Positions 2,206 to 26,712 of a stretch of DNA of 64,000 bases are shown piece by piece (position 1 is the first letter of the stretch; each line of letters opens with the position of its first letter). Origin of the DNA: Alphaproteobacteria bacterium (GTDB taxonomy: Bacteria > Pseudomonadota > Alphaproteobacteria > MPNO01 > UBA830). The DNA is taken from assembly GCA_038146925.1 (NCBI GenBank), contig JAYQSP010000009.1, positions 4,265-68,264 of the forward strand. The letters run 5' to 3'. Both the position numbers and the translations under genes were made by a program. The notes beneath the pieces were generated by a model, which did no database searches, was not told where the DNA came from, and worked only from the letters and a program-made list of their open reading frames with translations.

Positions 2206-4191
2206 GTGGCGTTAGTGGAAGGCTCGACAGCCAGACAGGCCGTCGAAGGCGCGGCAGGCGGCGTAATTGATTCCGCCATCCTCGACGCTCGACTTGATGC
2301 CGAGATCGTCGAGGCTGCGGATTCGCTGCGCGCGCGCCAGCACGAAGACGGCTACTGGGTATTCGATCTCGAAGCCGACGCGACGATCCCCGCCGAATAC
2401 ATTCTGCTGAATCATTTTCTTGGCGAACCGGAACCGGTGCTTGAAGCCAAGCTTGCCACGTATCTTCGACGAATTCAGTCCGACCGCCATGGCGGCTGGC
2501 CGCTTTTTCACGATGGCGATTTCGACATGAGTGCCAGCGTGAAGGCGTATTTCGCCCTGAAACTCGCCGGTGACGACCCAGACGCGTCGCATATGACTCG
2601 CGCGCGCGAGTCCATTCTTTCGGCCGGCGGCGCAGCGCTCTCAAACGTCTTTACGCGGATTACACTTGCCCTGTTCGGCCAGGTACCATGGCGGGCAGTC
2701 CCGGTGATGCCGGTCGGCATCATGTTGCTGCCCAAGTGGTCGCCGTTCCATATATTCAAAGTTTCCTACTGGTCGCGCACAGTGATCGCGCCGCTGCTGA
2801 TCCTGATGTCGGAAAAGCCGCAGGCCGTGAACCCGAAAGGCGTGGACATACGCGAATTATTCGTCACCCCGCCGGAGGAAGAGCGGCGGTACCTGGTAAA
2901 CCCGACCGGCGCCAAGCTCGGCTACGCCTTTCTCGCGCTCGATAAAGTGCTGCGCGTTGTCGAGCCCAAGCTGCCCGGACGCGCCCGCCGCCGCGCCATC
3001 GACGCCGCCGTCGACTTCATCACCGAACGACTGAACGGCGAAGACGGCCTGGGCGGTATTTTTCCGGCGATGGCCAACACGGTCATGGCCTTCAAGACGA
3101 TGGGCTGCGCCGACGACCACCCGGATTACGTCGTCGCGCGGCAATCCATCCGCAAACTGCTTGTCGAAGCCGATGAAGAAGCCTGGTGCCAGCCTTGTCT
3201 GTCGCCGGTATGGGACACCAGTCTCGCCATGCTCGCCCTGATGGAAGCCGGCGACCGCGACGACAGCCCACAGATCAGACGTGCTTCGGCCTGGCTGCGC
3301 GATGTCCAGATTACCGACGTCGCCGGCGACTGGGCCGATTCCCGCCCCGATGTCGCGCCCGGCGGCTGGGCGTTCCAGTTCCGCAACGATTTCTATCCCG
3401 ACGTCGACGATACCGCCGTAGTCGCGATGGCGTTGCATCGGGCACATTCGCCGGAAAACGATGTCGCGCTTCAGAAGGCGGCAGACTGGATCATCGGCAT
3501 GCAGTCGGAAAACGGCGGCTGGGGCTCATTCGATGCCGACAACACGCATTATTACCTGAATCATATTCCGTTCGCCGATCACGGCGCCCTGCTCGATCCG
3601 CCGACAGCCGATGTCTCGGCCCGGTGTCTTGCGTTCCTCGCCCAGACCGGTCACGGCAATCATCGCGCCTCGATCGAACGCGCGATAGCCTATCTGCGAA
3701 AGGAACAGGAACCCGACGGGTCCTGGTTCGGGCGATGGGGAACCAACTACATCTACGGTACCTGGTCAGTGTTGTCCGCCTTCAACGCAGCCGGCGTACC
3801 AGCGGACGACCCCGCCGTACAGAAAGCCGTGGCGTGGCTGAAATCACGCCAGCGTGCCGACGGCGGCTGGGGAGAAGACGGCGCCACCTACTGGGAAGAC
3901 CGCAAGGACGAGGTCAAGACCTCTACCGCGACGCAGACGTCCTGGGCCCTGCTCGGCCTGATGGCCGCCGGCGAAGTCGGATCCGGGGAAGTGGAAAAAG
4001 GCGTTCGCTTTCTACTCGACGCGCCGCACGCAGACGGGAAATGGGAAGAGAAGCACTACAACGCCGTCGGTTTCCCGAAGGTCTTCTATCTGCTGTATCA
4101 CGGTTACCCGGCTTATTTCCCGGTGTGGGCTCTGGCACGATATCGCAAGCTGCGCGATGGCAATGCCGCCAGCACGGAATGGGGTATGTAG
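2206..4191 (+). CDS. shc: Squalene-hopene cyclase
   Basis: 661 aa; catalytic DVDDTAVV (DXDD), QW repeats (QHEDGYW, QSENGGW, QEPDGSW, QRADGGW), GRWGTNYIYGT. Confidence 0.97.
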   Translation: MALVEGSTARQAVEGAAGGVIDSAILDARLDAEIVEAADSLRARQHEDGYWVFDLEADATIPAEYILLNHFLGEPEPVLEAKLATYLRRIQSDRHGGWPLFHDGDFDMSASVKAYFALKLAGDDPDASHMTRARESILSAGGAALSNVFTRITLALFGQVPWRAVPVMPVGIMLLPKWSPFHIFKVSYWSRTVIAPLLILMSEKPQAVNPKGVDIRELFVTPPEEERRYLVNPTGAKLGYAFLALDKVLRVVEPKLPGRARRRAIDAAVDFITERLNGEDGLGGIFPAMANTVMAFKTMGCADDHPDYVVARQSIRKLLVEADEEAWCQPCLSPVWDTSLAMLALMEAGDRDDSPQIRRASAWLRDVQITDVAGDWADSRPDVAPGGWAFQFRNDFYPDVDDTAVVAMALHRAHSPENDVALQKAADWIIGMQSENGGWGSFDADNTHYYLNHIPFADHGALLDPPTADVSARCLAFLAQTGHGNHRASIERAIAYLRKEQEPDGSWFGRWGTNYIYGTWSVLSAFNAAGVPADDPAVQKAVAWLKSRQRADGGWGEDGATYWEDRKDEVKTSTATQTSWALLGLMAAGEVGSGEVEKGVRFLLDAPHADGKWEEKHYNAVGFPKVFYLLYHGYPAYFPVWALARYRKLRDGNAASTEWGM

Positions 4192-4198
4192 TCGCCGG

Positions 4199-5014
4199 TC
4201 AGACGGCCTTCGTCCGACGGCGCAGCGCAGCCACCAGCAACATTGCGAAACCGACCGCGGCCGGCATCTCGGGCTCCGGCACAGCAACCTGTTCGCCGAT
4301 TTCCAGAGAACTGGTTATTCTGAGGCCGCCGTAGATCTCGGGCGAGCTACCGGCCAAATCGATGGGACCGAACGATGTCCCGGTCCATGTTCCCGGAAAG
4401 ATCGACAGCGATCCGACGGATTTGGTGCCGCTGAACACGTTGGTGATGAAACCGGTCGAGTAGTCGATATCGATCGTGAAAATACCGCCGGTATAGGACG
4501 CGACCTCGGCAAACACATTCGGCGCCGTTTCCTCGAAAACCTTCACTTCGCCGTTTCGGTAAATCCGTCGCTCTGTCGTCGCCCCGGTCGTGAACAGATC
4601 GGCCGCATTTCCGAAATCGAGAGTTAAACCGCGAATGCCGAGGTGGAGCGCGCCGTTGATCCCGACGGATGCCAGCGCCGCGGAAGCGGGCGCGGTTGCG
4701 CCGAGAGACCGCGTGGGCGCGTTGGCCCCGATGGCGAGTTCGCCGCCGGTGACAAAATCATAGGCATCCGGTGTCGCCAGCGACGTGTATGGGCCTGCCA
4801 CGCCGAACGTGGAATAGAAAGCTCCCATCGGGGCATTGGCGGCGCCAACGGTTCCCGCCGATACGAAATCATGCCCGATCACGCCCTGATCCGTGCCACC
4901 CACGGCCGCGTTGCCGGTAAACAGCACTGTCACGGCGGACGCCTGACCACTGAAAAACACTGAAAAAGCGACTGCGACGAGCAGCGCAAACGAGTAATGC
5001 CTGTACTTTGCCAA
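4199..5014 (-). CDS. PEP-CTERM sorting domain protein
   Basis: Signal peptide (YSFALLVAVAFSVFFSGQASA), Gly/Thr/Ala-rich body, C-terminal VPEP + hydrophobic helix + RRR; TTG start at 5014 inferred. Confidence 0.85.
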   Translation of the reverse strand: MAKYRHYSFALLVAVAFSVFFSGQASAVTVLFTGNAAVGGTDQGVIGHDFVSAGTVGAANAPMGAFYSTFGVAGPYTSLATPDAYDFVTGGELAIGANAPTRSLGATAPASAALASVGINGALHLGIRGLTLDFGNAADLFTTGATTERRIYRNGEVKVFEETAPNVFAEVASYTGGIFTIDIDYSTGFITNVFSGTKSVGSLSIFPGTWTGTSFGPIDLAGSSPEIYGGLRITSSLEIGEQVAVPEPEMPAAVGFAMLLVAALRRRTKAV

Positions 5015-5099: not shown

Positions 5100-6350
5100 T
5101 CAGGCGGTCGCCATACGGGGCCCCTTGGACCGGAACAGAATCATCACCATGATGCCGACGTTCAGAACGTTCCAGGCAATGCCGTGGAGGAACGCGGCCT
5201 GATACGAACCGGTCATGTCGAAGATCCAGCCCGACGTCCAGCCGCCGAACGCCATGCCGACGATCGTCATCATGATGAGAAAGCCGACGCGCTCCGCCGC
5301 CACCTTCGCCGGCATGTATTCGCGGACGATGATGGCGTAGCTGGGTACGATGCCGCCCTGCGCAAGGCCGAACATCAGCGAAATCACATAGAGCGACATC
5401 AGCCCGTCGAAGGGCAGATAGAACAGAAGGGCCAGCCCCTGTAGCACCGAGCCGATCAGCAGCGTCCGCACGCCGCCGATATAATCGGCAATGAAGCCCG
5501 ACACCACGCGGGTCACCGCGCCGCCCGCCAGCATAAGCGACAGCATTTCCGCCCCCCGTGCCGCGCCGTACCCCAGATCGGCGCAGTACGCGACGATATG
5601 TACCTGGGGCATCGACATGGCGACGCAGCAGGCGATGCCCGCGATCGACAGCAGGATCATCAGCGAGCGCTGAGACAGGTCGATGGTCTTCCGGTCCGTC
5701 GCAACCGGCGTCGATGCGTCTGCGACAGGTATTTCGTCCATCATCGGCGGCGGCCGACGCAGCATCAGTGCCAGCGGGACCATCGTCACCACCACGACAA
5801 CCGCGATCACCAAATAGGTGAAACGCCACCCGTTCGCGTCCATCAGCGCCTGAACCACCAGCGGCCATATCGTGCCGCCGATATAGTTGCCGCAGGCGCA
5901 CAGCGCCACGGCGACGCCGCGACGTTTCAGAAACCAGTGGGACACGTCGGCGATCAGCGGCCCGAAACTGGCGGCGGTGCCGATGCCGATAAAAACGCCC
6001 TGCAACAGAGCGAACAGCCAGATGTTCTGGACGGCGGACGCGCCGGCGAAGCCGATTCCCATCGCAACGGCCGCCGCAATAATCGGAACCACGATCCCCA
6101 GCCGGTCGACGTATCTTCCGATCAGGACGTTGCCCGCCGCGAAACCGACCATGGTGAGCGTATATGGCATAGACGCATCGCTGCGGTCGACGCCGAACTC
6201 CGCCTGCACTTCCGGCAGGATTACGACCACGCCCCAGAACCCGATGCTGCCGATGGTCCCCAGCAGCATAGACACGGCGAGACGTAGCCACGCGTAGGAC
6301 CCATCGATCAGATCTTTGCCTGACGGGGCGGCGGGGTTTTCAGTTGTCAC
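5100..6350 (-). CDS. MFS transporter
   Basis: 416 aa, about 12 hydrophobic segments, GRYVDRLG and GFIADYIGG loop motifs. Confidence 0.9.
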   Translation of the reverse strand: MTTENPAAPSGKDLIDGSYAWLRLAVSMLLGTIGSIGFWGVVVILPEVQAEFGVDRSDASMPYTLTMVGFAAGNVLIGRYVDRLGIVVPIIAAAVAMGIGFAGASAVQNIWLFALLQGVFIGIGTAASFGPLIADVSHWFLKRRGVAVALCACGNYIGGTIWPLVVQALMDANGWRFTYLVIAVVVVVTMVPLALMLRRPPPMMDEIPVADASTPVATDRKTIDLSQRSLMILLSIAGIACCVAMSMPQVHIVAYCADLGYGAARGAEMLSLMLAGGAVTRVVSGFIADYIGGVRTLLIGSVLQGLALLFYLPFDGLMSLYVISLMFGLAQGGIVPSYAIIVREYMPAKVAAERVGFLIMMTIVGMAFGGWTSGWIFDMTGSYQAAFLHGIAWNVLNVGIMVMILFRSKGPRMATA

Positions 6351-21895: not shown

Positions 21896-23002
21896 TCACG
21901 GCGTCGCGCCCATTTCCTGCATCACATCGGACACCGCCGCGACGGCCGCGCGCATGTCGTCGGGAAACACCTGTCCGATGCAGCCGATCCGGAACGAATC
22001 CGCTTTCGTCAGTTTGCCCGGATAAATCGTAAAACCTCGCGTTTGCAGCCCGGTGTAGAACCGGTTGAAATCGAATGCAGGGTCGTCCGGCATATCGAAC
22101 GTGACGATGATCGGCGCCTGCAGGTTATGAGACAGATAGGTGCGAAAGCCGAGCGCCGTCATACCATCGACCAGAACGTCGCAGTTTTCCCGGTAACGTG
22201 CGTGCCGGCCGGCAACGCCGCCCTCCTCGTCCAGTTGTTCGAGCGCGGCATCCAGCGCGGCGACGACATGCGTCGGCGGGGTGAATCGCCATTCGCCGGA
22301 TTTTTCGAATCCCGCGGCCTGGGCATGGAGATCGAGCACCACGGACGGCGCGTTTCCCGCCGACGCCGCGAGGATTTCATGTCGCGCGACGACAAAGGCG
22401 ATTCCGGGCACGCCCTCCAGACATTTGTTCGATGACGCGATCAGCACGTCGACCGGCGTCGCATTGACGTCGACCGGTATGCCGCCGAACGAGCTCATTG
22501 CGTCCACGATCAGGGAACGTCCGGCCTTCTGAACGGTCTCCGCTATTTCCGCAAGCGGGTTGAGGATGCCCGACGTGGTTTCGCAATGAACCATGGCGAC
22601 GTGGGTGATGGTGACGTCGGCATCCAGCAGTCTGCCCAGTTCGGCGGGATCGGGCGGCACATTCTCCGGCGTCTCGTAAACCGTCACCCGGCGGCCCAGC
22701 GTTTCGGCGATTGTTCCCATGCGATGGCAATACGCGCCATTCGCCGGGATCAGGACATGACCGTCCGGCGGAATGAACGTCGCCGCCGCCGCTTCCAGCC
22801 CGAATGTTCCGCTGCCCTGCAACAGCACGCAGGCGTGGGTCTCGGCGCCGCCCGCGATAGCGGCGATCCGTTCTCGGACACGGCGCGTCAGATTGATAAA
22901 GGCGGGATCGCGGGACCCCCAGTCGCGCAGCATTGCGGCGCGCGTACGCTCCGACGTTGTCAGCGGTCCGGGGGTCAGGAGAATCTGGGGCTTGTCAGAC
23001 AT
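21896..23002 (-). CDS. phnW: 2-aminoethylphosphonate--pyruvate transaminase
   Basis: LLTPGPLTTS..RAAML.DWGSRD, QGSGTF..EAA, HCETTSGILNP, DAMSSFG, PLP lysine SSNKCLEGVPG, WRFTPPTH, IYPGKLT. Confidence 0.95.
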   Translation of the reverse strand: MSDKPQILLTPGPLTTSERTRAAMLRDWGSRDPAFINLTRRVRERIAAIAGGAETHACVLLQGSGTFGLEAAAATFIPPDGHVLIPANGAYCHRMGTIAETLGRRVTVYETPENVPPDPAELGRLLDADVTITHVAMVHCETTSGILNPLAEIAETVQKAGRSLIVDAMSSFGGIPVDVNATPVDVLIASSNKCLEGVPGIAFVVARHEILAASAGNAPSVVLDLHAQAAGFEKSGEWRFTPPTHVVAALDAALEQLDEEGGVAGRHARYRENCDVLVDGMTALGFRTYLSHNLQAPIIVTFDMPDDPAFDFNRFYTGLQTRGFTIYPGKLTKADSFRIGCIGQVFPDDMRAAVAAVSDVMQEMGATP

Positions 23003-23069
23003 GGAGAATATTTAGATCAATTCCTTCGGCGTCGCAGAATCTTTTCGTAGTCCCGGCGCCGACATAAAG

Positions 23070-23114
23070 TGGGACAAATCCCAATATTGACTATTGCAAA
23101 AATATTGGGACAAT
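23070..23114. promoter_or_regulatory. Inverted-repeat operator overlapping a sigma70-like promoter
   Basis: TCCCAATATT (23079-23088) N12 AATATTGGGA (23101-23110); TGGGACAA repeated at 23070 and 23106; TTGACT-N16-GACAAT. Confidence 0.6.
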
Positions 23115-23146
23115 TGAACATTCGAAGCAAGTCAAAGGTGGGGCGA

Positions 23147-24553
23147 ATGACCGAACATGCCGAACTGATTGCGCGAATTGAATCTTACTGCCGCGGCGCC
23201 GAGATCGCGGAATCCACATTCGGACGACGCGCGGTCAACGATGGGAAATTCGTCGGCAGGTTGCGGGAAGGCAAAAGGGTGACCACGGCGACAATCGGCC
23301 GGGTGGAAAAATTCCTGGACGATCATGCGGCCGATGGGGATGAAACAGAGACATACGACCCCCGCATGAGTGCGGGAGCAAAACCAGCCACCGAGACGAA
23401 AGCGCCCGCGGATGCGAACGGCGGGGGCGAAGACAAGACCCATTTCCGGTTTTACGACAACCGCCAGAAATATCTGCTGTTCGTGAACACCTGCTCGGAG
23501 AAATGGGCCGTCGCCGACCGGGTTGGGCAGGAACTTAACCGGCTGCAGGTCCGGCCGCCCTCCCTTCGCGTTTTCGATGCGGGGATGGGGGATGGCACGG
23601 TCCTGACCCGCGTCATGCGGCACATGCACAAGCTGTATCCCACCGTGCCGTTTTACGTGGTCGGCAAGGAAATCAGCCTCGAAGACGTACGCCTGACGCT
23701 GGAAAAACTGCCCGACCGGTTCAACGAACATCCTGCCATGGTCGTCGTGATCACCAACATGTTCTACGCGGAAGCACCGTCGCTGATGCCGCGCGCGCCG
23801 GAAAACGCCGCCCGCCTGAACTGGCGCGAAGTCGCGCTGGACGGCAATTCGGCGCACGAGTTCGAGGAACAGATCGCGGCGCTGGAGCCGGAGATCGCCG
23901 ACGGATGGCAAGTCCGCACCAGCGAGAAGACCGGCAATCCGCTTTATGTCCGCCCTTCGGTGATGATCCTCTATCGCGGCGATCACAAGCTGCTGCTCGA
24001 CAACATCATCCCGCGTCCCGGCCTGTCGGTGAAAGACTACAACCTGATCATCGCGTCGCAGCCGTTCCGCCTGCGGGCATCGCTGGATCTGAAGGTGAAA
24101 CGCGTACTCGCACCGCTCGCCCGCGCACTGGCGCCCGGCGGCCGCATGCTGACGATCCATTCCCACGGCAACGATCCCGGTATCGAGATCATCAGACGGG
24201 TGTGGCCGGACGAGGACCCGTTCCAGCACAACCGCCAGGCCTTGCTGCAGGCGCTCAAGAAGGAACTCGGCCGCGACGGGCGCGACCTTAATTTCACCGC
24301 CGCCGCCGACAAGCGCGCCCTGTTCCGCTATGTGATGCATACGCTGCCCACGGAGATCGGCTCGTCCATCGGAACGTCTACCCTGATGGCTGCATGGAAT
24401 GCCGCCGTTTACGTCGCTCAGATCGAGGACGACCGCCTCGAAGCGGCCATGGCTGACAACAGCTATCTGCAGGCCACGAGCGACGTTCTGAAGGAATACA
24501 ACGGCCTCTGGTTCAACGACGAATCGTTCGTCGTCTCGCGGCGGCGCGACTGA
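23147..24553 (+). CDS. Small HTH domain fused to class I SAM-dependent methyltransferase-like domain
   Basis: N-terminal IESYC......STFGRRAVNDGKFV.RLR.G...T..T..RV..F; motif I VFDAGMGDG; start refined to MTEHA. Confidence 0.75.
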   Translation: MTEHAELIARIESYCRGAEIAESTFGRRAVNDGKFVGRLREGKRVTTATIGRVEKFLDDHAADGDETETYDPRMSAGAKPATETKAPADANGGGEDKTHFRFYDNRQKYLLFVNTCSEKWAVADRVGQELNRLQVRPPSLRVFDAGMGDGTVLTRVMRHMHKLYPTVPFYVVGKEISLEDVRLTLEKLPDRFNEHPAMVVVITNMFYAEAPSLMPRAPENAARLNWREVALDGNSAHEFEEQIAALEPEIADGWQVRTSEKTGNPLYVRPSVMILYRGDHKLLLDNIIPRPGLSVKDYNLIIASQPFRLRASLDLKVKRVLAPLARALAPGGRMLTIHSHGNDPGIEIIRRVWPDEDPFQHNRQALLQALKKELGRDGRDLNFTAAADKRALFRYVMHTLPTEIGSSIGTSTLMAAWNAAVYVAQIEDDRLEAAMADNSYLQATSDVLKEYNGLWFNDESFVVSRRRD

Positions 24554-25449
24554 TGAGCGCGCTGTCCGACGCCATCGCCGCCGGCCGTTTCGCCATCACG
24601 GCGGAAATTACGCCGCCGCTATCGGCCGATCCCGCCGACCTGCTGACGAAAGCCTCGGTTCTGAAAGGCCATGTCGACGCCGCCAACGTCACCGACGGCG
24701 CCAGCGCGCGGGCGCACATGTCGAGCGTCGCCGCGGCCGGGCTGCTGGTGCAGAACGGTATCGAGCCGGTGCTGCAATTTACCTGCCGCGACCGCAATCG
24801 TATCGCATTGCAGTCGGACCTGTTGGGCGGCGCCGCGCTGGGGGTGGAGAACCTGCTGATCCTGCGCGGCGACGATCCGTCCGCCGGCGATCAGCCGGAC
24901 GCCAAACCGGTATTCGACTACGAAAGCCGCGACCTGATGGAGTGCGCGAAGCAAATGCGCGACGACGGCACACTACCCTCGGGTCGGGAAATCAGGTCCC
25001 CGCCGAAGCTGTTTATCGGCGGCGCGGATACGCCGATGGATCCTGCCGACGAACGCTGGAAACCGGACGGACTGATCGCCAAGATCGACGCCGGCGCCGG
25101 TTTTTTTCAGACCCAGTTCTGTTTCGACGTTGATATCGTCCGTAAATACGCGGCCGCGCTGGTCGATCACGGTATCGCCGAAAAAGCCGGCGTGCTGATC
25201 GGGATCGGTCCGCTGGCGTCGGCGAAATCGGCGCGATGGATGCGGGAAAACCTCTGGGGAACGACTATCCCCGACGCGCTGATCGACCGGCTGGAAAGTG
25301 CGGAGGATCAGAAAGCGGAAGGCACGGCGATCTGCGCCGAACTGATCGCGGCTTATTCGGGGATCGAAGGCGTCGCAGGCGTTCACCTGATGGCGCCGCT
25401 CGGGGTTGACGCGGTACCGCTCGCCATCGAACAATCGGGGGTAAGATAG
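24553..25449 (+). CDS. metF: Methylenetetrahydrofolate reductase
   Basis: TAEITPP, DAANVTD, QFTCRDRNR.ALQSDLLG, LRGD, KIDAGA.FFQTQ; TGATG coupling to upstream gene. Confidence 0.9.
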   Translation: MSALSDAIAAGRFAITAEITPPLSADPADLLTKASVLKGHVDAANVTDGASARAHMSSVAAAGLLVQNGIEPVLQFTCRDRNRIALQSDLLGGAALGVENLLILRGDDPSAGDQPDAKPVFDYESRDLMECAKQMRDDGTLPSGREIRSPPKLFIGGADTPMDPADERWKPDGLIAKIDAGAGFFQTQFCFDVDIVRKYAAALVDHGIAEKAGVLIGIGPLASAKSARWMRENLWGTTIPDALIDRLESAEDQKAEGTAICAELIAAYSGIEGVAGVHLMAPLGVDAVPLAIEQSGVR

Positions 25450-25599
25450 GCCGTTCGCCGTCTCGAGGGTTTCATACCTGGCTTGCTCCGGGAAACCACG
25501 GGAAACCGTCGTCACAGCCCCTCGGTTGAAGCCGCGATACGGACAAAGGCCCGAGGAAGACAAACAGAAATTCGTCTGGAACCCAAGGGGGAGCCCACC

Positions 25600-26712
25600 A
25601 TGTCCGTCAAGCCGTTTTTCCGCGCCGATCAGGTGGGTAGCCTGCTGCGCCCGCAGAAACTTCTGGATGCGCGCCTTGACTGGAAAGCCGGAAAGATATC
25701 CGCTGAAGACCTCCGCGCCGTCGAAGACGAGGCCATCGCCGAAGTGGTGAAAATGCAGGAGGATCTCGGCCTCGAAGCCGTCACCGACGGTGAGTTTCGG
25801 CGCGAAAACTGGTGGATTGATTTTATCTCGGCCATCGACGGAATCGAGATCAGCGAACCGGACGTCGATTCCGCCTTCCACGAAAACCCCGAACACGGCG
25901 GCAATTACGTGCCGAAGAACGTACTCACCACGGGCAAGATCGGCGGCGGCGGCAGTATCTCCATTGACGATTTCGACTATCTGAACCGGTGCACGTCGAA
26001 AACGGCCAAGGTGATGATCCCGTCGCCCAGCCGCATCCATTTCCACGGCGGACGCGCCGCGGTCAGCCGGGATGTCTATCCATCCATGGACGATTTCTGG
26101 GCCGATATCGTCACGCTGTACCAGGAAGAAATCGCGGCACTGGAAAGACACGGCTGCACATATATCCAGATAGACGACCCGGTACTGACCTATTTCCTCG
26201 ACGACCGTCTGCGCGCCAACACGGCGGATATCGGGGAAGACCCGGACAAGCTGCTGGGCCTATACGGCGACGTGCTGAACGCCTGCATGGAGAAACGATC
26301 CCCCGATACCTACCTGTCGATTCATCTGTGCCGGGGCAACGCACAAAGCCAGTGGATCGCCGCCGGCAGCTACGACGCCATGGCCGAAGAACTCTTTCCC
26401 CGCGTCGATGTCGACGCCTGGTTCCTAGAATACGACGACGACCGCTCCGGCGGGTTCGAGCCGCTGCGTTTCATGCCCGACGGCACCAGGGTCGTTCTCG
26501 GCCTGATCACCACCAAGACCGGCCGGATGGAAGACCCGGACGAAATCCGCGCCCGCATCGCCGAGGCGGCGAAGGTAATGCCGCTCGACAGCCTCGCCCT
26601 GTCGCCGCAATGCGGCTTCGCGTCTATCGATATCGGCAACAAGATCGCCTTCGACGAACAGACCGCGAAACTGAAAATGATGCTGGAGATCGCGGAAGAC
26701 GTGTGGGGATAG
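25600..26712 (+). CDS. Cobalamin-independent methionine synthase II family protein (MetE C-terminal-like)
   Basis: RADQVGSLLRP, VTDGEFRR..W..DF, YIQIDDP, Zn ligands IHLCRGN, LEYD, SPQCGF. Confidence 0.9.
   Translation: MSVKPFFRADQVGSLLRPQKLLDARLDWKAGKISAEDLRAVEDEAIAEVVKMQEDLGLEAVTDGEFRRENWWIDFISAIDGIEISEPDVDSAFHENPEHGGNYVPKNVLTTGKIGGGGSISIDDFDYLNRCTSKTAKVMIPSPSRIHFHGGRAAVSRDVYPSMDDFWADIVTLYQEEIAALERHGCTYIQIDDPVLTYFLDDRLRANTADIGEDPDKLLGLYGDVLNACMEKRSPDTYLSIHLCRGNAQSQWIAAGSYDAMAEELFPRVDVDAWFLEYDDDRSGGFEPLRFMPDGTRVVLGLITTKTGRMEDPDEIRARIAEAAKVMPLDSLALSPQCGFASIDIGNKIAFDEQTAKLKMMLEIAEDVWG

Follow-up and report, generated by a model that had tools for sequence, protein, structure and literature searches.

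What controls the methyl-cycle genes at this locus, and could the controlling protein be the product of the gene that heads them? The window considered here (the whole 64,000-nt stretch, positions 4,265 to 68,264 of contig JAYQSP010000009.1 from the alphaproteobacterial assembly GCA_038146925.1) contains a gene, called X below, whose product combines an N-terminal helix-turn-helix (HTH)-like domain with a class I S-adenosylmethionine (SAM)-methyltransferase fold. It stands directly before metF, encoding methylenetetrahydrofolate reductase (MTHFR), and a MetE-like gene, and upstream of it lies an array of short half-sites that overlaps the predicted promoter. Judged from sequence comparisons, X is very probably a DNA-binding autoregulator of this methyl-cycle operon. 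A fuller reading, which we consider reasonably probable, is that X is a transcription factor regulating its own operon, X-metF-(MetE-like), through the half-site array, and that its action is gated by SAM or S-adenosylhomocysteine (SAH); we infer that X itself binds the operator, and likewise the sign of the regulation and the identity of the ligand. The features on which the argument turns are these:

23069..23074, + strand: operator half-site 1, GTGGGA, forming the palindrome GTGGGA-N4-TCCCAA with half-site 2 (read from the sequence; conserved layout)
23079..23084, + strand: operator half-site 2, TCCCAA, the outer end of the left repeat arm at 23079-23088 (sequence and relatives)
23105..23110, + strand: operator half-site 3, TTGGGA, the outer end of the right repeat arm at 23101-23110, overlapping the -10 (sequence and relatives)
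23087..23114, + strand: predicted sigma-70 promoter TTGACT-16-GACAAT, with TG upstream of the -10, inside the operator (promoter prediction)
23147..24553, + strand: gene X, 468 aa, HTH and methyltransferase-fold fusion (open reading frame (ORF) list, homologue alignment, structure model)
23147..23326, + strand: N-domain of X, residues 1-60, predicted four-helix Cro/C1-like HTH (structure model and fold search)
23333..23491, + strand: variable low-complexity linker, residues 63-115 (predicted local distance difference test score, pLDDT, below 50; unalignable among homologues)
23492..24550, + strand: C-domain of X, residues 116-468, class I SAM-methyltransferase fold (structure model, Foldseek, alignment)

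The full operator in the window reads GTGGGA-N4-TCCCAA-N20-TTGGGA and overlaps both the predicted -35 and the predicted -10. A first-pass annotation, made from the sequence alone, had described a 10-bp perfect inverted repeat overlapping a TTGACT-N16-GACAAT promoter. Both are present, the promoter at 23087-23114 and the repeat, TCCCAATATT-N12-AATATTGGGA, with its 10-bp arms at 23079-23110; the latter is the sole match to its pattern in the window even when 3 mismatches are allowed, and none of 100 shuffled sequences matched. As a description of the operator the repeat is nevertheless incomplete, since only the outer TCCCA/TGGGA ends of its arms are conserved in relatives, and a third half-site, GTGGGA at 23069-23074, had been overlooked. 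The ATATT extension of the arms is particular to this lineage. The closest relatives (L001, L003, L004, L009) likewise have a -35-like hexamer after half-site 2 and a GATAAT-like -10 that shares bases with half-site 3, and in these and the window the -10 merges with half-site 3 as TGGGA(C/T)AAT. The same annotation had suggested the regions upstream of metK, ahcY and metH as places to seek further copies of the repeat; within the 64-kb window there is no second operator, and neither metK nor ahcY was found there. A terminator-like call on the minus strand (23083-23070) was rejected: it is the hairpin form of palindrome 1, placed before the divergent gene phnW and not behind any gene.

The mechanically called ORF for X (23069-24553) begins at a GTG at 23069 that falls within the operator. 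The true start is the ATG at 23147, which is preceded by AAGGTGG and corresponds to the Met at which every homologue starts. A 468-aa protein 100% identical to X is held in a database record.

Conservation of the operator was examined in 80 genomic loci with X relatives (57-88% identity) from alpha-, beta- and gammaproteobacterial metagenome-assembled genomes (MAGs). These loci are pieces of 13 kb, and the regulon beyond the X operon was assessed within them. The conserved element is the hexamer TCCCA(C/A) with its complement, in fixed arrangements. The layout TGGG-N6-CCCA-N22-TGGG is shared by the window and about 20 loci, and with a spacer of either length (TGGG-N6-CCCA-N21/22-TGGG) it is found in 44 of 81 loci; in about 35 loci there are four half-sites, arranged TGGG-N6-CCCA-N8-CCCA-N9-TGGG. 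Half-site hexamers are 14-17-fold enriched upstream of X. The core TGGG-N6-CCCA occurs in 51 of 79 X-upstream regions as against 2 of 1419 control windows, and three or more half-sites occur in 73 of 79 as against 30 of 1419. Across 904 kb of related loci there are 98 clusters of three or more half-sites, of which 77 are directly upstream of X and most others are inside genes. The consensus from the X-upstream regions is AGTGGGATATATCCCACT. A gammaproteobacterial subgroup with NDGKLC in the N-domain has GCCCA half-sites instead of TCCCA.

Promoter position relative to the array varies with lineage, and in most lineages other than that of the window a conserved TTGAC begins 8-11 nt past the end of the array. 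A block containing the likely -35, ATTGTGGTTGAC, located 8-11 nt past the last half-site, is preserved nearly letter for letter in about 35 beta- and alphaproteobacterial loci (e.g., L036, around 5910-5925); it may contain a further degenerate half-site, TTGTGG.

Four loci forming a single clade (L017, L022, L025 and L027) have no half-sites upstream of X. In the same four, the NDGK at the start of the putative recognition helix (helix 3) is changed to GDG(R/T) and helices 2 and 4 differ as well, while NDGK is kept in every locus having half-sites. This change of helix 3 in the operator-less clade is suggestive of an N-domain that reads the half-site, and the clade may have acquired a new DNA specificity. 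Its members share a promoter-like sequence, TTGACCG-N14/15-GGCGTAA(C/G)CC, about 160 nt upstream of X (at 6001; 2052 in L022), and CCGGACTATA is common to two of them.

If the operator belongs to X, it should lead to X when used as the only guide. A metagenome collection was scanned with the four-half-site DNA pattern alone, using no protein information, and at least 120 contigs matched. Among the matches listed, 102 of 120 contigs have a correctly oriented X homologue with its start 54-174 nt downstream; six more end too early to judge, and 12 are without X, of which 11 look like chance matches (inside genes or with no nearby promoter). In the operator-selected contigs a MTHFR gene is next to X in 31 of the 41 that could be assessed. 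The remaining contig without X, L146, has a typical four-half-site operator at 3632-3670 (strand reading TGGG...) with the conserved TTGTGGTTGAC, directly preceding a MTHFR ORF at 3770-4708 with no X between.

The genes around X in the window are the following:

24553..25449, + strand: metF, methylenetetrahydrofolate reductase, 298 aa (Pfam MTHFR PF02219, E 5.6e-34)
25600..26712, + strand: short single-domain MetE-like methyltransferase, 370 aa (NF005085, 390 bits against a cut-off of 313, and Meth_synt_2)
21896..23002, - strand: phnW, 2-aminoethylphosphonate-pyruvate transaminase, divergent from X (NF010006, 525 bits)

The X stop codon (TGA, 24551-24553) and the metF start (ATG, 24553-24555) overlap by one base, which bears out the translational coupling claimed in the first-pass annotation. 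A spacer of 150 nt (25450-25599) separates metF from the MetE-like gene. The window MetF scores best against the C-terminal half of a bifunctional YitJ-type homocysteine methyltransferase/MTHFR model (NF006396, 193 bits) and far under the cut-offs of the classical MetF models. On the other side, phnW does share the intergenic region with X, as had been pointed out, and a major facilitator superfamily transporter gene is also upstream and divergent. The partnership is not conserved, however: phnW neighbours X in the closest relatives only (L001, L002, L009), and a functional link between the two was rejected because of this restriction.

Linkage to SAM-cycle genes, by contrast with that to phnW, extends over the family. 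Where the sequence extends far enough past X (78 genomic loci), the next gene encodes MTHFR in 53, is metK in nine and ahcY in one, and is something else in 15; a SAM-cycle gene lies within 6 kb of X in 67. The MTHFR genes following X are of two kinds, 26 of the window type and 27 of a second type. This second, MTHFR-like type is distinct, with about 310 aa, and follows X in beta- and gammaproteobacteria. The typical gammaproteobacterial operon is X-MTHFR-metK-(adenosine kinase-like)-ahcY. In the loci examined, metH was not seen among X-linked genes, and no other regulator gene was found as a conserved neighbour of X.

Control by riboswitch was considered for the operon and rejected. Genes of the metE type often carry riboswitches, but the metF-MetE-like spacer (25450-25599) has no Rfam match. 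A wider Rfam scan of the 64-kb window, 11 related loci and five SAR11 loci gave no match at gathering score, the sole sub-threshold one (anti-hemB, 21 bits) being noise. Transcript evidence comes from salt-marsh metatranscriptome assemblies, with contigs spanning both the X-metF junction (e.g., 24352-24617) and the spacer ahead of the MetE-like gene (25424-25649). Of the four contigs that reach furthest 5', three begin at 23131-23149; as ends of low-depth contigs, these are weakly consistent with one transcript from just downstream of the predicted -10.

The protein itself matches little by sequence. No Pfam or NCBIfam model matched X, nor did any PDB sequence, whether X was used as a single sequence or as a 34-sequence profile, and a tblastn search of 72,556 plasmids gave no match. 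Cluster look-ups for ten X relatives returned no names and no accessions, database names on the family are 'hypothetical protein' or generic methyltransferase labels throughout, and literature searches found no published description of it. Folds were compared using an AlphaFold2 model of X built on a 34-sequence alignment (overall pLDDT 74). The N-domain, modelled separately, is predicted to form four helices (pLDDT 87.6). Its top Foldseek matches in the PDB are C.AhdI, HipB, SinR, C.Esp1396I, P22 c2 and 434 repressor (template modelling, TM, scores 0.6-0.7; probability 0.9-0.98), with E-values of 0.3-1 that are weak because the domain is short; all 50 PDB matches listed are Cro/C1-type HTH domains or eukaryotic CUT/MBF1 relatives. 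The HTH-like N-terminus of roughly 55 residues seen at first pass is thus modelled as a Cro/C1-type fold of residues 1-60. The putative recognition helix begins at N31-D-G-K34, and N31, D32, G33, K34, F35, V36, R38 and R40 are invariant in the homologue alignment.

The class I methyltransferase fold that had been read from DAGMGDG is borne out for the C-domain. Foldseek returned 50 matches at E <= 1e-3, methyltransferases almost without exception, the best of them theobromine synthase IpCS3, histamine N-methyltransferase, OxaG/RoqN, GtmA and TTHA0223 (E about 2e-6, 10-13% identity), although no Pfam Methyltransf model matches X. No variation is seen among 34 sequences in motif I, DAGMGDG (residues 144-150, 23576-23596), or in E175, the acidic residue following strand 2; the X alignment also shows an invariant ASQP(F/Y)R loop behind strand 4.

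Among characterized systems the closest parallel is SahR, an ArsR-family repressor of SAM-cycle genes (Novichkov et al., 2014; Leyn et al., 2014; PMC4239095) that carries an HTH and a methyltransferase domain, is SAH-responsive and regulates sahR, ahcY, metH, metF and metK (PMC4239095). X resembles SahR in its N-terminal DNA-binding domain, as modelled, and probably in the C-terminal SAM-methyltransferase fold; it appears from its upstream region to be autoregulated; it is linked to metF, metK, ahcY and metE-type genes; and it is found in Proteobacteria, in place of riboswitches. Comparative genomics puts the operator before X and then MTHFR, metK or ahcY, as SahR-type control of SAM-cycle genes by X would have it. 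Unlike SahR, the predicted HTH is Cro/C1-like and not an ArsR winged helix, with no HTH_5, HTH_20 or Methyltransf match; X is about 130 residues longer, with a disordered linker of about 50 residues; and its operator is an array of TCCCA/TGGGA half-sites, whereas that of SahR is a 20-bp palindrome. In the gammaproteobacteria, SahR and SamR share the consensus ATC-N10-GAT in palindromic operators of 20-24 bp (PMC4239095). SamR of the Xanthomonadales is, like X, a predicted methionine/SAM regulator with a methyltransferase-like effector domain, but it is distantly homologous to SahR (about 30% identity) and has a palindromic site of 24 bp (PMC4239095), and X has no detectable sequence homology to it. 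The comparisons favour, as to function, the SahR-analogous autoregulator with a different HTH that the first-pass annotation proposed, given the Cro/C1 rather than ArsR fold, the conserved operator, the recovery of X by DNA pattern, the altered helix of the operator-less clade and the metF, metK and ahcY neighbours; they place X outside the SahR family.

Other resemblances are more partial. The Cro/C1 (XRE) proteins C.AhdI, C.Esp1396I, HipB and SinR provide the best folds for the N-domain and control their own promoters from several adjacent sites; X differs in having no HTH_3 sequence match, a large effector domain, and half-sites in both orientations and at several spacings. The trigger enzymes BirA, PutA and NadR combine an enzyme-fold domain with an HTH and control their own pathways as X may do, but they are not homologous to it, and for X catalysis is only a candidate activity. 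MetJ and McbR set transcription of methionine/SAM genes according to SAM or SAH, as is proposed for X by analogy, but their folds (ribbon-helix-helix and TetR, respectively) are unrelated and they have no methyltransferase-like domain.

The mechanism we would propose is as follows. The N-terminal Cro/C1-type HTH of X would recognise the TCCCA/TGGGA half-sites, and several copies of X, joined through their methyltransferase-fold domains and reaching out on flexible tethers of about 50 residues, would fill the three half-sites here and the four in many relatives. Such tethers would explain the use of half-sites in both orientations and at several spacings. Because the array covers both the -35 and the -10 in the window, binding of X should repress the operon. 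The affinity of X for DNA would depend on how the C-domain is occupied, most plausibly by SAM or by SAH, so that MTHFR and methionine-synthase capacity would follow methylation potential. SAM or SAH is a plausible signal by pure inference, from the SahR analogy and the intact SAM-binding motifs.

The C-domain also exists without the HTH. A search among 1.84 billion representative proteins found 1910 relatives, including many natural stand-alone C-domains of 367-403 aa that begin at FRF(Y/F)DNRQKY and keep motif I, E175, (S/A)QP(F/Y/W)R, IGTSTxxAAWNAAxYVxQI and GLWFxDE. They come from Candidatus Pelagibacter (SAR11, a large group), Hwanghaeella, Steroidobacteraceae and various MAGs, so that alphaproteobacteria other than SAR11 and gammaproteobacteria are also represented; Pfam gave no match for stand-alone or divergent relatives. 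The SAR11 homologue is an HTH-less protein of 369 aa (L081 6001-7110, L083 4001-5110, L084 4001-5110, L085 2634-3743). In L081 and L083 it follows metY (Cys_Met_Meta_PP) and a gene for a 271-aa alpha/beta-hydrolase, next to asd and hom, and in L084 and L085 it is divergent from the gene for FTHFS (formate-tetrahydrofolate ligase); another stand-alone homologue, in L208, neighbours Cys_Met_Meta_PP. No half-site clusters were found upstream of the HTH-less homologue in six SAR11 loci. A conserved 99-aa ORF downstream of the SAR11 homologue was considered as a split-off HTH and rejected, its sequence being lipoprotein-like. In a gammaproteobacterial MAG (L209, 5001-11110) a 394-aa HTH-less homologue heads MTHFR-PfkB-MetK-AhcY; the sequence upstream of it encodes no HTH. 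GTGGGG/CCCCAC repeats at 4860-4940 of L209, upstream of the homologue, are half-site-like but spaced differently.

Fusions of an alpha/beta-hydrolase to the C-domain, of about 660 aa, are represented by P0441 (L210 2977-4962) and P0519. The genes fused in them adjoin in SAR11, which hints at a methyltransferase/esterase pair. A further set (P0155, P0407-P0414 and L211 219-1553; 416-444 aa) comes from short marine contigs and has N-terminal extensions resembling organelle presequences. One of them adjoins a gene for a prolyl-tRNA synthetase (ProRS) of eukaryote/archaeal type; these are probably picoeukaryotic members of the C-domain family. Variation of another sort is seen in P0147 (467 aa) and P0151 (480 aa), divergent full-length paralogues of about 40% identity that carry the HTH and keep the NDGK helix but in which both motif I (FEANLGEG and FISQMDNG) and the strand-4 loop have degenerated. 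Their sequences suggest pseudo-enzyme regulators, and the loss of motif I and the loop in HTH-bearing paralogues argues that some family members are not enzymes.

How well does a SAM- or SAH-gated autoregulator stand up to all this? Several points weigh against it. The N-domain alone has no match among the Pfam HTH models (including HTH_3/HTH_31 and HTH_5/HTH_20) even at E = 10, so that the HTH assignment depends on predicted structure; and the covariation of helix 3 with the operator, reflecting a single evolutionary event, is suggestive rather than statistical. The MTHFR gene of L146 is the only target with its own operator outside X operons among the loci and matches listed. The fourth of the 5'-most RNA contigs starts at 23052, upstream of the predicted transcription start. 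In the lineages where the array ends 8-11 nt upstream of TTGAC, its position fits activation as well as repression. Behind strand 4, the invariant (S/A)QP(F/Y/W) loop looks like a catalytic motif IV, and the HTH-less homologues, which keep the invariant residues and adjoin methionine, SAM and one-carbon genes, point to a role of the C-domain that is independent of DNA binding.

One alternative is that X is an enzyme or MTHFR partner only, with an N-domain that does not bind DNA and an array that belongs to another transcription factor. The missing Pfam HTH match would suit this, as would the stop-start overlap of X and metF if the two form a stoichiometric complex; X-MTHFR is the most conserved gene pair, and an HTH-less copy heads the MTHFR-metK-ahcY operon in L209. 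We nevertheless regard it as very improbable. No other regulator gene is a conserved neighbour, the operator tracks X in three proteobacterial classes whichever genes follow, it is missing exactly where the HTH is missing or helix 3 is altered, and all top fold matches of the N-domain are DNA-binding HTHs. A trigger enzyme is a more serious, if still tentative, alternative, and one that leaves DNA binding by X as in the autoregulator reading. Here the C-domain would be an active methyl-cycle methyltransferase with a conserved substrate, to which the HTH was added later, and active-site occupancy would control the operon as in BirA, PutA and NadR. The stand-alone homologues retain the invariant C-domain residues and sit beside metY and the alpha/beta-hydrolase, FTHFS, Cys_Met_Meta_PP or MTHFR-PfkB-MetK-AhcY. 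SAR11, where they are abundant, has very few transcription factors; the hydrolase fusions and the N-terminal extensions of the probable eukaryotic members point the same way; and the enzymes nearest in fold methylate small molecules at N, O or S. Against this, no substrate can be named, P0147 and P0151 have the HTH yet degenerate motifs I and IV, and conservation alone cannot tell catalysis from ligand sensing.

The sign of regulation might also be other than proposed. X could be mainly an activator, or a dual regulator like the restriction-modification C-proteins, with repression only where the promoter has moved into the operator, as in the window. C.AhdI and C.Esp1396I, whose folds are among those closest to the N-domain, act as both activators and repressors from a pair of adjacent sites, and in about 35 loci the array ends at a nearly fixed distance, 8-11 nt, upstream of ATTGTGGTTGAC or TTGAC. 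In the window and its closest relatives, however, half-site 3 is no more than about 40 nt from the start codon, and the sole promoter-like site is inside the operator; as a general account of X, activation seems unlikely to us. An autoregulator that represses here by covering its own promoter remains the preferred reading.

If X is a regulator, its family, with thousands of members in alpha-, beta- and gammaproteobacteria of soil, marsh and sea, would fill part of a gap: surveys of SAM and methionine regulation list MetJ, MetR, SahR, SamR and riboswitches, and leave many genomes without an assigned regulator (PMC4239095). Its operator is unusually clear and is conserved in all three classes. 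X would be a second, independent fusion of a DNA-binding domain to a methyltransferase fold for control of the methyl cycle, a convergent regulator design. A wider and more speculative possibility is that C-domain proteins of both kinds, HTH-fused and stand-alone, play a working part, so far unrecognised, in the methyl cycle of many soil and marine Proteobacteria, of SAR11 and probably of picoeukaryotes, either as a methyltransferase with a conserved central substrate or as a SAM-binding partner of MTHFR, and that the HTH form is a trigger enzyme reporting flux to the metF/metK/ahcY promoter. In SAR11 and picoeukaryotes, the relatives that lack the HTH may represent a missing enzyme or an MTHFR-attached regulatory subunit.

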